Positions 1,876-62,681 of a stretch of DNA of 64,000 nucleotides are shown in pieces. The translations under genes were made by a program, and so were the position numbers. Positions within the stretch are counted from its first letter, which is position 1, and every line of letters starts with the position of its first letter. The notes under the pieces are model-generated. The model saw only the letters and a list, made by a program, of their open reading frames with translations, was not told where the DNA came from and did no database searches. Where the stretch lies: positions 1-64,000 of IMG/VR virus record IMGVR_UViG_3300028591_000117; one strand, written 5' to 3'. This DNA comes from a virus. Taxonomy: Duplodnaviria; Caudoviricetes.

Positions 1876-3858
1876 TTAACTTAACTCTCTAGATAAACCT
1901 GATGGAGCTTCCATAGAACCACTAGCTTCAAAGTCACTATCACCAGCTCCTATCTCTTCTCCTTCAAGACTATCTTCATTATTTTCTTCAACATCACTTT
2001 CGAAGTTCTCTAAATCAGGTCCACCACTATCTAAACCTCCTAAGTCAGGTCCACCACCTAGACTCGGTCCACCTAAACTAGGACCTCCAGCTTCAGTATT
2101 TTCTTGTGATTGAGACAGCTCTCCATCTTGTTCTGCTTCTTCAATAATATCTAAATAATCAGAACCAAGCCACTCTTTAATCAATGAATTTCTTAACTCA
2201 GTAGTTCCAGCTACGTCTATTCCTAAATTCTCAAAGCTTTCAAGTAATTTACCTAATGTTTCTATTTGAACTTGTTTAGTTTCACATCTTTGATTATCTT
2301 CTTCAGTATTTATAGAAGTAAATACTATTTTAAAATCAGGTAGTTCTCTTAGAACACTCTCAGGTCTAGTAAACTCAAGATATTTTAAGCATAAATCTTT
2401 AAGACCTTCAGCAGCTATACTTTGAATACCTTTAATTGTTCTTGCATATCTTATATCCATTCTTGTTAATGATGTATTTATTAAACCACCACTATCTTCT
2501 GAGAAACCTAAGAATGCTTTTGGAATTCTTAATGCTGCAAATAACTTATCTTTAAAGTAATCTAAGTCTATAGCATCTTTAAGATTAACATCTCCACCAA
2601 CAACTTTAATATCTATATTACCAATACCATTACGTGTTGGAATAAAGATACTATCTCCTAGTGGAATTTGTCTCATTTCAGAGTTATATACTTTTTCTTT
2701 AACATTAATAGTCTCATCTGATTTAATTCTATTCTTTAGCTCATTAAGTATTTTCTTAGTTTCAGTATCACCTTTATTTCCAACTTCAACTGAGAATATA
2801 CGATATAGAGTAGAACGAGTCATACGAGTAAGCATTAAAATATCTTCAAGAGCAGATAAGATTTGCCAAGCAACAATAGCATTATCTAAATAAGACTGAC
2901 CTCTTCTTAATACAAAGTAATCTTTATTAGTTATACTATCATTATATGGACCAACTTCAAAGTTAATATGATATTTACCAGTACTATTAGCAAAGTTAAC
3001 TACATTTTTAGGACTAATAAAGAAATTAGGTTTTCTTACATCCATAAAAGCTATTGTTTTTCCTTTAGCTAATAATTCCCAGATATTAGTACCTGAACTT
3101 ATGCACTCAGTAAACCATCTTCCTCTAATTAGTCTTCTGATATCTTCATCATTACCTGATGTTAAAATATCTTCATTTAATTTCTGTTCTTTAAGAACTC
3201 TTTTACCTTTATTAGGTTTTAAAGCTTCATTAAGATACTTAATAACTCTATTCTTAGTACCTAAATCTGTCATACTATCAAAGTCTAAATTTTTAATACT
3301 CTCATTTAAAAGCTCAGTAAATTTAGATGTACTATCTTCTGTAATTCCTTCTTTAAGAATTTCATCAAAGATAGGTTTAGATATAGCTTCAAATGTTGGC
3401 TTATTCTTATCTATAAGAGCTAACCTATCGTCTTCTAACTTATCAATAAAATCAATTCTTACAGGACATTGACCATAGATAATAACTCTTCTAAGTATCT
3501 CTCTTAACTCTTTGTCCATTCTTAAATCAGATTTTAAGAAACGATTAAGCTCATCAGTTAAACCTTTAGCTAAGTCTTTTTCTAGTTTATCATCAGTATT
3601 ATCAACATCTATCCAGAAAATCTCCTGCTTTTGTGGGTCTACTTGAAGAGCATCATCAATATACATATCGACTGCAGCTGAGATAATTGCATCATCCATC
3701 ATTCTGTCTAATACATAATCAGTATTATAAGTATCAGATGCTATAAGTCTTAGTCCTCTAATAAAGTTATATGACTCAATGCCAGCTACTTCATAGTTCT
3801 GAGCTAAACCACTAGCTTCATTTAAAGACTGCTTGGATTTTCTACTAAATAATGCCAT
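1876..3858 (-). CDS. Portal protein, T4 gp20-like
   Basis: Motifs LEDILMLTRMTRST-YRIFSVEVGN, IFIPTR, DLDYFKDKLFAALRIPKAFLG and DIRYARTI are typical of gp20-like portals; acidic Gly-rich tail. Confidence 0.9.
   Translation of the reverse strand: MALFSRKSKQSLNEASGLAQNYEVAGIESYNFIRGLRLIASDTYNTDYVLDRMMDDAIISAAVDMYIDDALQVDPQKQEIFWIDVDNTDDKLEKDLAKGLTDELNRFLKSDLRMDKELREILRRVIIYGQCPVRIDFIDKLEDDRLALIDKNKPTFEAISKPIFDEILKEGITEDSTSKFTELLNESIKNLDFDSMTDLGTKNRVIKYLNEALKPNKGKRVLKEQKLNEDILTSGNDEDIRRLIRGRWFTECISSGTNIWELLAKGKTIAFMDVRKPNFFISPKNVVNFANSTGKYHINFEVGPYNDSITNKDYFVLRRGQSYLDNAIVAWQILSALEDILMLTRMTRSTLYRIFSVEVGNKGDTETKKILNELKNRIKSDETINVKEKVYNSEMRQIPLGDSIFIPTRNGIGNIDIKVVGGDVNLKDAIDLDYFKDKLFAALRIPKAFLGFSEDSGGLINTSLTRMDIRYARTIKGIQSIAAEGLKDLCLKYLEFTRPESVLRELPDFKIVFTSINTEEDNQRCETKQVQIETLGKLLESFENLGIDVAGTTELRNSLIKEWLGSDYLDIIEEAEQDGELSQSQENTEAGGPSLGGPSLGGGPDLGGLDSGGPDLENFESDVEENNEDSLEGEEIGAGDSDFEASGSMEAPSGLSRELS
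2010..2090 (-). repeat. Imperfect coding repeat GGP(S/D)LG in portal tail
   Basis: Translation GGPSLGGPSLGGGPDLGGLDSGGPDL. Confidence 0.7.
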
Positions 3859-3892: not shown

Positions 3893-3902
3893 TAATATAT
3901 AA
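3893..3902 (-). promoter_or_regulatory. Class II (late-type) promoter motif TTATATATTA upstream of portal
   Basis: Same motif at 8651, 9016, 31843, 51660 and 58977, usually right after a terminator U-tract. Confidence 0.55.
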
Positions 3903-3930
3903 AAAAGAGAACTAAATATTTAGTTCTCTT
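3901..3930 (-). terminator. Intrinsic terminator
   Basis: AGAGAACTAAA/TTTAGTTCTCT inverted repeat followed by a U-run on minus. Confidence 0.75.
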
Positions 3931-58771: not shown

Positions 58772-58945
58772 CTATTCCTCCTTATCATTTTGAGCTTCTT
58801 GTATCTTTCTGACTAACTCTACTTTAAATTTGTTTGTCTCTAATGTATGACTACAATATGGACAAACAAGTTTATTGTTTATAATCTTTACTTTAGACAG
58901 TGGTATTTCTTCTAAACAATCTTTACAAATATATTTATTTTCCAT
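58772..58945 (-). CDS. Small zinc-ribbon protein (57 aa)
   Basis: Read by hand: YICKDC...LVCPYC. Confidence 0.5.
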   Translation of the reverse strand: MENKYICKDCLEEIPLSKVKIINNKLVCPYCSHTLETNKFKVELVRKIQEAQNDKEE

Positions 58946-59000
58946 ATCACTTAGTCTATGAAACTCAGCTCTAAAATAATATATAAAAGACGAACTAATA

Positions 59001-60526
59001 TTATTCGTCTATATTCCAATCATCAAATTTATTAAATACTCCTTGTAGCTCTTCTTCTGTAATTAACTTACCTTTAGTAAATGCCCAAAGTAAAGACCTT
59101 CTTAAAGTACTCATAAACTTCTGTTCATTATCATAAGTAGTATAAGGTAGTGTATTCATCTTACCAAATAAACTTTCAATAAGCTTCATATTCTTCTCCA
59201 TACATAATCTTTTATATGTATCTGTAGTTCCAAATGCTTCAATTATATCTATATATTGTTTACTAAATTCAGTATCTACACGAGTTATTCTACCAATTAT
59301 CTGCATTATCTTAGCTATATCATAAGGTAAATCATAAAAAATAATTGCATTAGCTTTTTGAAGATTTATACTCTCACCACCAGCTGAAGTTATAAGTAAA
59401 GGTTTATCTACTGCTATTATATCTTGAATTCTTTTTCTTTCAGACATTGATACTCCACCTTTAATTATTAATGTATTTGAAACTCCTAAATCTCTTTTAA
59501 AAGCTCTTATTAAATAATCTAGTCTCTCAAGAACTGATACATACTCACAATATATTATAGTTGGTTTATTCTCTCTGATATTTTGTAATAATACTTTTAA
59601 TAATAATTTTTCTTTATTTGAAATTTCTTCTCTATCTATTTCATCAGAAACATTATCTACAACAAATGTTATATCTCTTAGTCGAACTGACCAAAAATCT
59701 TTAGCTTTCTCAGACATTTTACCACCAGAAGCTTTTAGATAATTCTTAGTTTCAGTTTCATTAAGATGAGTTGTATGATAGTTAAACTCTAAATTATACT
59801 CTTTTTGTCTTACTATAATTACTTCATTTAAAATAGATTGTAATCTCTCTATATTTTTATATCCAACTATTTCTTCTATTGTTCTTTGAACTTTCTGTCT
59901 ATTTCTTGTAGTTTGCGTTATTCTTTTTCTATTAATAATTAAATAGTTATATTTAAAATTAGACCACGCTCCTAAAAGACTTGGATTTAATAATGTAATC
60001 ATCCAATACATTCCTTCTATATTATTTTTGCAACTAGTAGCTGTTAAAAAATATAATATACAAAATATCTTTCTTATTTGTATAAATTGTTTATACATAT
60101 TAGACTTAGGATTTTGTAGTCCATTATGACTTTCATCAACAATTCCTAAAAGTTTATGCGTTTTATACAACTCAGCTAAAGTTGGTATTGCTTTATCGAT
60201 GCATGTATTAGATATTAATAAAAATCTTCCATTAGGATTTTTAAATGATTTCTCAGTACTTATCATTGAATAGCTTACATGTAATTTTTCAGTTAACTCT
60301 TTTTCAAAAGACATTAAAGCTTTAGGTGGAGCTATAACTATAGTTATCAAATCTCTATTCTTTAACATGAGTTGAGTTGCTAAAGTAACTGCTGTATAAG
60401 TTTTACCTAAACCAGTTAAGTCTGGCCAGATATAACTGCATAAGGTCTTCTTATTGCAAAGTCTATCATTTCATTTTGTTCTTGTTTTAATGGAAACTCT
60501 TTTGATAGTGTATAATCTGGAACCAT
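59001..60526 (-). CDS. SF2 (SNF2-like) helicase, reading frame interrupted by 5 nt at Walker A
   Basis: AAGGAGGTG plus ATG at 60526 gives MVPD...LKQEQ...AVISGQT then stop. TGLGKT continues in the frame of ORF 59001-60368 (IVDESH, LTAT, GGESINL, QIIGRITR). Confidence 0.85.
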
Positions 60527-60546
60527 TTAAGCACCACCTCCTTTAA

Positions 60547-60888
60547 TTAAAATTCTATATCTAATTCTTTTATTACATACTCTGTAATTCTATCTAAGTT
60601 TGGTTCTAATTGATACCAAATATCTATTTTAAATACTTCATCTTTATCTGGTCTATGATGTAAACTAGTCACTAAAACCTCATGTTCAGCTTTAGACCAG
60701 TAATAATACATTAGTATACTTTTAATTCCTTCTTTTAATTTTTCATAATTATCTATTTTATCACGTTTTATTCTTTTAAATAAATCATTTACAAACCACT
60801 CACCTAAAACATTAACTCTTTCTAGCTTATTACTATTGAAATCTTCTCTAAAAGCATACCATTCTAATTTTTTATTCTTTTTCTTCAT
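60547..60888 (-). CDS. Hypothetical protein
   Basis: YYYWSKAEHE...KIDIWYQ. Confidence 0.6.
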   Translation of the reverse strand: MKKKNKKLEWYAFREDFNSNKLERVNVLGEWFVNDLFKRIKRDKIDNYEKLKEGIKSILMYYYWSKAEHEVLVTSLHHRPDKDEVFKIDIWYQLEPNLDRITEYVIKELDIEF

Positions 60889-61450
60889 AATTATCTTCTC
60901 TTTCTTCTATTAATCTATCTAATAAAGTACATGCTTGACTATACTCTCTCATATTAAAACCAGTATATGTATCACATTTAACTAAATAAGGAGTTAAATC
61001 TCTTTTAAAACCTACCATATCAGTGTCATCATCTAAAATAACCATAACAGTTTTATCAATATCATAGTTATTTTCAATCATCCAATTCTCTATCTGAACT
61101 CCTCTAGTTTTAAAATAATTCTTATTAGCTCCATCAATAACTTCTACTCTACTGTCTAAACCACTATTTCTAAGAGCTTTTTCAACATCTTTTAATTTAT
61201 GTCCTATAAGCCATGTAGATGTAATAACTATTTTTAAATTATACTCTAAACAAAGTTTATTTAACCACCTAACTGCAAATTCATTAGATACTCTTTTATC
61301 ATTAGGCCAACATAAATCGAAATAAAAACCATCTTTTTCTACCATTCTTCTACCATCAATTGGTTCTGAATATATCATGTGAGTATTTACAACACCATCA
61401 ATATCTAAAAATAATAATCTATCATAACTTAATCTTATACTAGTTACCAT
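60872..61450 (-). CDS. HAD-superfamily phosphatase (RNA-repair-associated type)
   Basis: LFLDIDGVVN, IVITSTW, RG.QI and VILDDDTDM. Confidence 0.8.
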   Translation of the reverse strand: MVTSIRLSYDRLLFLDIDGVVNTHMIYSEPIDGRRMVEKDGFYFDLCWPNDKRVSNEFAVRWLNKLCLEYNLKIVITSTWLIGHKLKDVEKALRNSGLDSRVEVIDGANKNYFKTRGVQIENWMIENNYDIDKTVMVILDDDTDMVGFKRDLTPYLVKCDTYTGFNMREYSQACTLLDRLIEEREDNYEEKE

Positions 61451-61501: not shown

Positions 61502-62355
61502 AAATATATTAACTAGGTAGGAATTATTTATTTACCTACAAGTTTAAGACTTAGCTCTGTTTATTAGTTGTACTCTAATGAGGAAGGATTGATTACCTTC
61601 AAGACTGCTAGCTTTAGACAATGTAATACGGTCAAAATCTTTTTCTAAGATTTCGCGTTCCAATTTACACCTTCTGACACAGATTTGTACTGAGTGATTA
61701 ATTGCCAAACTATTATACACCTTTTTACAGGCTTCAACTGCATCTACTTAATGAAAGCTGTGTATATATGCCTCGAACACGTACATATATCACTATCATC
61801 TAGTCGCAACCATCATTCTAGACTGATTATATAAAATTTCGCTATATAAACTCGTTATTATCATAACTCTAAGTCCATTTCAGAACTGTCTATATACCAC
61901 TTACTCCAAGCAAGAGTATTCGTGCACTACATTTGTAGGAAAGTTGTCAAATCTTTCATTATTAAATATAACCATCTTATTAAACTACTATATTTATTAT
62001 TATCTGGCCAAGATAATAACATTTTATAATATAGATTGGATTGATTACCAATATATCAGTACTCAACTACCTATTTCCATTTAACACGGATTTTAGCAGA
62101 CAACATCTATCAAATTTATAGGAGCATATCTCTCCATCAACCGCGAACATTTCTCGTTCTCTCTACTGTTTAGTCGCAACACCACATGTAGACTAGAATG
62201 CATTCGATAGACTCAACTTACACTAACTAAGAATAACAACAAAACTCCCTCGGCTTTTGACCTGGCTACTTAGCTCATGACGAGTTTTTTAACTCGTGTT
62301 AGTTTCTACTCTTATAACGTCGAAATATTGTTTGAGTTACTAAGTTAATATATTT
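61502..62355 (-). ncRNA. Large structured ncRNA (about 850 nt), GOLLD/ROOL-like
   Basis: No ORF of 60 aa or more; higher GC than typical intergenic DNA here; ends form a perfect 13-bp helix; many hairpins and duplicated motifs; next to a tRNA; bounded by promoter/boxA and terminator. Confidence 0.75.
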
Positions 62356-62382
62356 TCAAAGAACTTAGTGTATTTAACACTA
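62353..62382 (-). promoter_or_regulatory. rrn-type antitermination signal: boxB-like hairpin plus boxA
   Basis: UAGUGU-UAAAU-ACACUA followed by GUUCUUUGAAAA, the Firmicutes rRNA boxA consensus. Confidence 0.75.
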
Positions 62383-62604: not shown

Positions 62605-62681
62605 TGGTAGGCAGAGTAGGACTTGAACCCACGACCAAAGCTGTATAAGAACCTCACTCTAACCAACTGAGTTATCTGCCT
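62605..62681 (-). tRNA. tRNA-Ile with UAU anticodon, CCA encoded
   Basis: AGGCAGA-TA-ACTC-AGTTGGTTA-GAGT-G-AGGTT-CT TAT AC-AGCTT-TGGTC-GTGGG-TTCAAGT-CCTAC-TCTGCCT-A-CCA. Confidence 0.9.

Follow-up and report, generated by a model that had tools for sequence, protein, structure and literature searches.

A candidate short stop-hop across a 5-nt gap in the Walker A motif of a viral SF2 helicase gene

How could a virus make a complete helicase from a gene that is broken, in the middle of its ATP-binding motif, by a stop codon and a change of reading frame? This question is raised by a locus in an uncultured virus record of 123.5 kb (28% G+C); the first 64,000 nucleotides of the record, the stretch that contains the locus, are called the window below. 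An original prediction made from the letters alone had described a ribosome-binding site and an ATG at 60526 followed by 36 codons ending in ACU and then UAA, and a second ACU 5 nt past the first. All of these elements were found as described, and the second ACU is followed by GGU and the open downstream frame. The features of the locus, with the putative take-off and landing sites named as in bypassing, are as follows:

60534..60544, minus strand: Shine-Dalgarno sequence AAAGGAGGTGG of the helicase gene, common to the N-terminal segment of all close relatives, interrupted or intact
60419..60526, minus strand: segment 1, the ATG (60526-60524) plus 35 codons, ending in mid-Walker A (..AVISGQT)
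60399..60427, minus strand: Walker A (motif I) stretch, G-Q-T / gap / G-L-G-K-T
60419..60421, minus strand: putative take-off codon ACT (Thr36), preceded by GGC CAG
60416..60418, minus strand: zero-frame stop TAA abutting the take-off codon, next base C
60414..60418, minus strand: coding gap TAACT of 5 nt, its final 3 bases being the putative landing triplet ACT (60416-60414)
59004..60413, minus strand: segment 2, the GGT resume codon (60413-60411) plus 469 codons (GLGKT.., DESH, Helicase_C)

Segment 2 comprises 470 open codons and ends at a TAA (59003-59001). Its frame reads GGT TTA GGT AAA ACT from 60413 and is open upstream as far as 60470, and it contains no ATG, GTG or TTG upstream of 60368, a position past motif I. 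The ATG at 60368 is not preceded by any Shine-Dalgarno-like sequence, in agreement with the earlier remark that the downstream 455-aa open reading frame has no good ribosome-binding site. The gene matches Helicase_C (1.6e-14), ResIII and SNF2-rel_dom in Pfam and the DNA helicase family phrog_62 in PHROGs, and the best solved relative of its 90%-identical homologue P0001 is 1Z63 of the SNF2/Rad54 family (E 2.4e-12). With motif I, a DExH motif II and a C-terminal RecA-like domain carrying motif VI, the predicted product is an SNF2/Rad54-like SF2 helicase, and its Walker A motif is complete only once the gap is hopped. There is no second helicase copy in the 123.5-kb genome. Neither a blastn comparison of the locus with the phage collection of GenBank nor a search of IMG/VR with a DNA pattern of the close family (leaving out the window's own record) gave any match.

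The 5 nt are a real part of this sequence. A Logan contig of run X1 (sheep gut; word depth 12.8) matches positions 59000-60900 with 0 differences; X1 is the probable source run and hence not independent of the window, and Logan is a second, independent assembly. No alternative contig without the 5 nt was found among the X1 Logan contigs, which cannot reveal minor variants, and a minor intact sub-population is possible because contigs rather than raw reads were inspected. The contigs of run X2 and of RNA run X3 leave 60344-60535 uncovered, and a contig of run X4 ceases to fit at 60416. Contigs of X3, a sheep-gut metatranscriptome whose library may contain DNA, are identical to the helicase gene over 59864-60164, a stretch that lies outside the junction. 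Close relatives had been expected to lack the 5 nt if these were a private mutation or an error; the opposite was seen, with the same TAACT present in the 70%-identical locus L055. The gap is neither private nor an assembly error.

A search of 5.8 billion proteins yielded 173 relatives, and our analyses use the best 120 of these 173 clusters. About 40 of the best 120 start with artefactual N-termini or just past motif I, and the underlying DNA was examined for part of the listed clusters. Besides the type seen in the window, at least 9 gap types (1, 6, 7, 8, 10 and 11 nt) occur in these relatives, and all interruptions are confined to the approximately 21 nt of a 1.5-kb gene that encode Q-T-G-x-G-K-T:

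TAACT after Q-T (ACT): the window and L055 (70% identity, different synteny)
TGACA after Q-T (ACT): L052/L053 (41% identity, a quite different phage), analogous to the window's gap
TAGTACA after Q-T (ACT): L062
10-nt gaps after Q-T (ACT), starting with TAA, TAG or TGA and ending with GCT or ACA: L036, L039-44 and L038
TGACTT after Q-T-G-L (CTT): L054 (~90% identity; 2090-2125) and L006 (43%; 2480-2520)
11 nt after Q-A-G-I (ATT), starting with CGG CGC and ending with ATA: L046-51
8 nt after Q, starting with TGA: L056 (2495-2520), with a CA-ATG-A stop/start overlap at the break
one extra C before a Gly codon, creating CGG: L066 (1470-1500), ACG C GGA
two extra C, each creating CGG before a Gly codon: L005 (2470-2500), ACA C GGT TAT C GGA
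an unparsed 5-nt excess with TGA at the expected Gly codon: L008 (2480-2520)

The interrupted forms are common, at about 40 of the best 120 clusters. P0002 alone has 61 members and occurs on no fewer than 12 contigs drawn from several samples, the interrupted P0060 has 47 members, and the same or analogous gaps recur across independent samples, studies and assemblers. The sharing of CTT TGA CTT by L054 and the 43%-identical L006, which belongs to a different phage, suggests convergence or recombinational transfer in motif DNA. L066 and L005 are candidates for +1 shifts at a hungry CGG codon, of which L005 would need two in succession. When the whole 123.5-kb genome was scanned for further junctions that combine a stop with a change of frame, the helicase junction was the only one found. 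A scan flag at 3922 was rejected as an ordinary gene end (3895-3925, minus strand), where a TAA is accompanied by an AGAGAAC/GTTCTCT hairpin with a T run, likely an intrinsic terminator, and by a new ribosome-binding site and ATG near 3857.

The gaps follow a recognizable grammar. Their first triplet is a stop codon in 6 of the 7 multi-base types, with TAA, TAG and TGA all represented, and CGG in the seventh multi-base type and in the 1-nt types. At this base composition a stop would be expected in about 8% of cases, which gives a rough chance estimate of ~2e-6 for 6 out of 7, and CGG is used once per ~39,000 codons of this phage. The base following the stop is C after 5 of 9 gap stops, and a stop followed by C is the weakest termination context in bacteria. 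At the other end of the gap, the triplet preceding the resume codon equals the take-off codon at 2 or more positions, again in 6 of the 7 multi-base types (rough chance estimate ~4e-4). The take-off/landing pairs are ACT/ACT, ACT/ACA, ACT/GCT, CTT/CTT and ATT/ATA; for the GCT landing triplet, a G-U pair at the first position with the Thr anticodon is still possible. The window itself combines a slow-to-decode A-site codon (TAA then C) with a cognate landing triplet at a non-overlapping site that adjoins the resume codon, and its take-off codon ACT is the commonest Thr codon in the phage's genome-wide codon count. As judged from these sequences, the gap grammar has the features of stop-hops and bypassing and not those of random damage.

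Resuming at the second ACU had been predicted to give VISGQTGLGKT with the correct spacing of motif I, and this is what the intact homologues have. Merging the two ACT codons yields ..AVISGQTGLGKT.., which agrees letter for letter with the intact homologues P0001, P0005, P0006 and P0025 (85-90% identical). Among the best 120 of 173 clusters, the Walker A motif of the intact cluster representatives (n = 72) is Q[TA]GxGKT with the single exception of KPGLGKT. The distance from QNE to GKT is 22 residues in all 70 intact clusters measured, spanning 32-90% identity, so that products with extra residues in the P-loop would be unprecedented in the family.

Comparisons between interrupted lineages indicate that both halves of the helicase gene are under purifying selection, as they are in intact lineages. 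Over the 33 codons upstream of the gap, pS is 0.3-0.7 and pN 0.02-0.10, with pN/pS values of 0.03 for the window versus L036, 0.12 for L036 versus L038 and 0.12 for the window versus L055, and all interrupted lineages compared for segment 1 retain the ribosome-binding site and ATG. Segment 2 is open over 465-471 codons in all 6 interrupted loci measured, and its pN/pS is 0.14 in interrupted pairs versus 0.12 in intact pairs at equal divergence. Neither relaxed constraint nor further lesions, as would mark a pseudogene, were found. Together with the recurrence of gaps in relatives, this selection on both halves lends support to the initial proposal of a minimal natural hop or other recoding event.

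The gap state itself changes readily. On a FastTree of 113 family members built on the region after the P-loop, the interrupted forms are scattered, and parsimony requires no fewer than 14 changes of state, a number that rises to 24 when those forms that start after motif I are included. P0008, with a 10-nt gap, and P0015, which is intact, encode an identical protein past the P-loop, and their DNA (L038 and L057) is ~98% identical over 4 kb with a gene pS of 0.12 and differs by the 10 nt. Near-identical alleles that differ in this way imply that the gap state flips on short time scales, through precise loss or gain or through recombination in the highly conserved stretch. Rapid switching is also indicated by the occurrence of the same 5-nt and 6-nt gaps in homologues that are only 41-70% identical. 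Substitutions near the L038/L057 junction amount to ~5% versus 2-3%, a marginal local excess. Since the P0015 and P0008 alleles differ while their downstream proteins are identical, part of the selection signal could stem from lineages that switch state. Homologous 10-nt gaps are maintained across ~10% protein divergence.

The original prediction had also placed the take-off codon, stop and landing codon in a hairpin, CAGUUA-UA-UCU(GGCC)AGA-CU-UAACUG, and had proposed to check it for conservation and covariation:

60405..60446, minus strand: mRNA hairpin around the take-off codon, with the stop and the landing triplet in its 3' arm

This structure folds as drawn, with CAGUUA (60438-60433) pairing with UAACUG (60418-60413) and an inner UCU/AGA stem around GGCC, and it is the minimum-free-energy fold (-13.2 kcal/mol, z = -2.24; 7 of 200 dinucleotide shuffles were as stable). 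The prediction fared less well on conservation: a strong hairpin is present in the window, L038, L052 and L054 and absent from L062 and from L055, which has the identical 5 nt. The arms of the window (CAGUUA/UAACUG) and of L038 (CUGUUA/UAACAG) look compensatory, but L055 joins the 5' arm of L038 to the window's gap with a mismatch, and covariation was rejected as evidence. We do not count the apparent covariation because inserts templated by the upstream arm would look alike, and since the 3' arm consists of inserted bases, the inverted repeats may reflect the origin of the insert by fold-back synthesis as much as a function. Gap-bearing relatives have no common requirement for the hairpin, and no stimulator conserved among them was found.

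Other possible stimulators were sought around the junction. The nascent peptide is an ordinary 36-residue N-terminus common to intact homologues, and the window has neither a Shine-Dalgarno-like element ahead of the take-off site nor a slippery heptamer (the stop is preceded by UCU GGC CAG ACU). A phage-encoded tRNA that promotes hopping was rejected as a candidate; the sole tRNA of the 123.5-kb genome is a tRNA-Ile(UAU) (62605-62681, minus strand), which fits the heavy use of ATA (1367 codons), and there is no tRNA-Thr. A gene-free stretch of 0.9-2 kb lies upstream of the HAD_SAK_2/helicase block (61502-62382 in the window, 232-2032 in L036 and 777-2825 in L046). Pairing of this stretch in trans with the junction was rejected, as the segments are neither homologous nor conserved; the duplex-energy ranks for such pairing were 10/302 in the window, 1/302 in L036, 22/302 in L039 and 58/302 in the intact L045. 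A 57-residue zinc-ribbon-like open reading frame directly 3' of the helicase gene (58772-58945, minus strand) is also found in L038 and L039 and is absent from L036, L045 and L057, and it is uncorrelated with the gap state.

No homing endonuclease of the HNH, GIY-YIG or VSR kind was found by Pfam and PHROGs searches in the flanks of the helicase genes of the window, L052, L055, L056 and L066. The only intein of the family, with a LAGLIDADG endonuclease, is in motif VI of P0130 (962 aa, JGI), and a LAGLIDADG domain lies within the neighbouring PolA gene of L052/L053; from these two cases it appears that selfish endonucleases visit these replication modules and not the P-loop.

The reading that we favour, at a probability of about 0.6, is that a short stop-hop, in which peptidyl-tRNA-Thr re-pairs 5 nt downstream, yields the helicase as a single chain of 506 residues. 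The exactness of the junction, together with selection on the two halves of the gene, suggests that a single polypeptide arises from the two frames; the hop itself, its efficiency and its regulatory role are what we infer. The ribosome would read 36 codons from the ATG at 60526 and come to hold peptidyl-tRNA-Thr on ACU in its P site, with UAA followed by C in the A site as a signal that is slow to decode. In a fraction of ribosomes, the peptidyl-tRNA would release ACU, the mRNA would move by 5 nt and the anticodon would re-pair with the second ACU, after which Gly-tRNA would decode GGU and G-Q-T-G-L-G-K-T would be formed at the family's invariant spacing. Ribosomes that terminate would free a harmless 36-residue peptide, and the gap would therefore also dim helicase output. 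The efficiency of an unstimulated stop-hop in E. coli is ~1%, and a hop of 5 nt that lacks a stimulator may reach no more than about a percent. Simpler readings fail because there is no early start in the downstream frame, the standard code fits and no second helicase copy exists; reassignment of a stop codon was rejected since the standard code gives ~96% coding and long frames end at all three stops.

More generally, the ribosome would stall when its A site is occupied by a stop or a hungry codon, and the P-site tRNA would re-pair at a matching triplet 5-11 nt further on. This rule is the best reading of the sequences of the window and of most relatives. The relatives that do not fit one matched hop are L056, L008 and L005 (with its double 1-nt gaps), and L056 and L008 may be inactive or rely on another mechanism. 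Since the 1-nt CGG cases can be accounted for only by +1 shifts with no re-pairing, stall-and-move probably takes more than one form in the family. A wider reading, which we put forward tentatively and at slightly less than even odds, takes the Walker A micro-gaps of 1-11 nt as a widespread class of repeatedly gained and lost recoding sites, at which a stop or ultra-rare codon would stall the ribosome at the P-loop and a hop or frameshift would rebuild the motif; the sites would provide either a heritable and rapidly reversible dimmer of helicase dosage or a break-up of the gene's most conserved DNA that counters a nuclease or recombination.

The same locus could instead hold an off-state or dead allele of a dispensable helicase that is repeatedly inactivated at a mutational hot spot by fold-back or template-switch synthesis at a quasi-palindrome, with the interrupted form being neutral or useful and repaired by recombination with intact phages. 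Many of the inserts do create an inverted repeat together with the coding DNA that precedes them (as in the window, L038, L052 and L054), and both the 14 or more state changes and the 10-nt difference between the ~98%-identical L038 and L057 would be natural products of such a process. Yet a hot spot leaves unexplained why gaps start with a stop or CGG and end with triplets that match the take-off codon. Inactivation also sits badly with the absence of a second lesion from the 465-471 codons of every interrupted locus measured, with constraint on both halves that equals that of intact genes over pS 0.5-0.7, with the persistence of the homologous 10-nt gaps described above and with the lack of any loss of function elsewhere in the gene among the best 120 of 173 clusters, and we consider it unlikely. 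Still less probable is recoding of another kind, a +2 or -1 frameshift at ACU-UAA that would add one or two residues to the P-loop (..GQTTGLGKT or ..GQTLTGLGKT) or, in the 10-nt relatives, a +1 shift that would add three. The frames permit such shifts, and only +1 movement at a hungry CGG can explain the single-base gaps in L066 and L005, so that frameshifting without re-pairing probably does occur in the family. At the window's junction, by contrast, a slippery heptamer and a prfB-like Shine-Dalgarno element are both missing, tRNA-Thr could not re-pair at -1 or +2, a length change between QNE and GKT is tolerated in 0 of 70 intact clusters, and the matching landing triplet would be left unexplained.

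Loss of the 5 nt ahead of translation, whether by programmed or phase-variable excision from a fraction of the DNA or at the level of the RNA, would agree with the presence of intact and interrupted alleles in closely related phages, but a single form was assembled from the source run at ~13x word depth and no sequence common to the gaps offers a target to a site-specific enzyme. We know of no RNA-processing system that excises 1-11 nt, and regard removal as very improbable. The odds are, if anything, a little poorer for a split protein, in which the 36-residue peptide and a truncated helicase act together or the truncated form acts alone. The stop/start overlap at the break of L056 and an in-frame ATG upstream of motif I in the 10-nt relatives would suit internal initiation; the ATG that gene callers choose for the 10-nt forms lies in another frame in the window, however, where the downstream frame offers no start codon before 60368, beyond Walker A, and no Shine-Dalgarno sequence, and the break falls between strand beta-1 and the P-loop. 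Least credible of all is an assembly or sequencing error in the record. It could draw on the inspection of contigs rather than reads and on a best-matching run that is probably the source itself, against which stand the recovery of the 5 nt by a second assembler and the same 5 nt with many analogous gaps in independent material.

If the helicase gaps are hopped, short-range bypassing would be an ordinary and evolvable part of phage gene expression, and gene callers would make the systematic error of annotating these helicases as truncated or split; about one third of the family's database entries begin at artefactual codons. The relatives form a natural allelic series with gaps of 1, 5, 6, 7, 10 and 11 nt, all three stops, CGG, exact or wobble landing and presence or absence of a hairpin, with which the rules of take-off and landing could be worked out. 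That the events cluster at the P-loop points to a selective or mutational force that has not yet been described. To our knowledge, natural bypassing is limited to very few cases, namely T4 gene 60 and its homologues, the byps of yeast mitochondria and the terminase candidates of phage Hau3. A full-text literature search on bypassing together with helicase and Walker A returned nothing relevant.

The best-studied system, the bypass of T4 gene 60 with its MobA cassette (Huang et al. 1988; Bonocora et al. 2011; Manning and Atkins, bioRxiv 10.1101/2022.08.31.505936), resembles the window in its matched take-off and landing codons, in a stop right after take-off, in a local stem-loop and in the interruption of an essential-type phage gene of DNA metabolism by a gap that only some relatives have. 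It differs in that the gap is 50 nt long (20 in the shortest clade described) rather than 5 nt, in that its stem-loop lies inside the gap whereas the 5' arm of the window's hairpin is upstream coding sequence, and in having an insert-specific nascent-peptide element, which the window lacks. The target there is a topoisomerase and here the P-loop of a helicase, the gap sequences are unrelated, and unlike the MobA cassette the interrupted helicase loci examined have no flanking endonuclease gene.

The large terminase gene of Streptomyces phage Hau3 contains two 10-nt gaps after the rare codon UUA (Smith et al. 2013; PMC10732093), and a related prophage has a 7-nt terminase gap, with mass-spectrometric support for 10-nt and 7-nt gaps in E. 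coli (PMC10732093). Like the helicase gaps, these are gaps of a few nucleotides (7-10 nt) in the gene of a phage enzyme with a slow-to-decode A-site codon, a conserved protein junction without room for extra residues, gap-free relatives and nearby RNA structure. The trigger there is a bldA-dependent UUA and here a stop (CGG in some relatives), and gaps occur in 3 of 100 terminase genes as opposed to about one third of the helicase family, in many types and with repeated gain and loss. The +1 shifts of prfB (RF2) and of hungry codons share with our loci a poor A-site codon, either a stop with C after it or a codon that is very rarely used, and L066 and L005 belong here with their 1-nt gaps; the window, unlike prfB, has no upstream Shine-Dalgarno element or overlapping re-pairing site and requires a 5-nt move.

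The geometry of the window's gap matches that of the +5 and +6 hops across stop codons in reporters in E. coli (Weiss, Dunn, Atkins, Gesteland 1987, as cited through PMC10732093), where unstimulated stop-hops are reported to occur at a low level (PMC10732093). As in those hops, the P-site tRNA of the window would re-pair with a cognate triplet 5 or 6 nt further on, across a stop, and the CTT TGA CTT of L054 and L006 has the textbook +6 form. The reporter hops were synthetic or adventitious and inefficient, whereas the candidate sites described here are in natural genes under selection.
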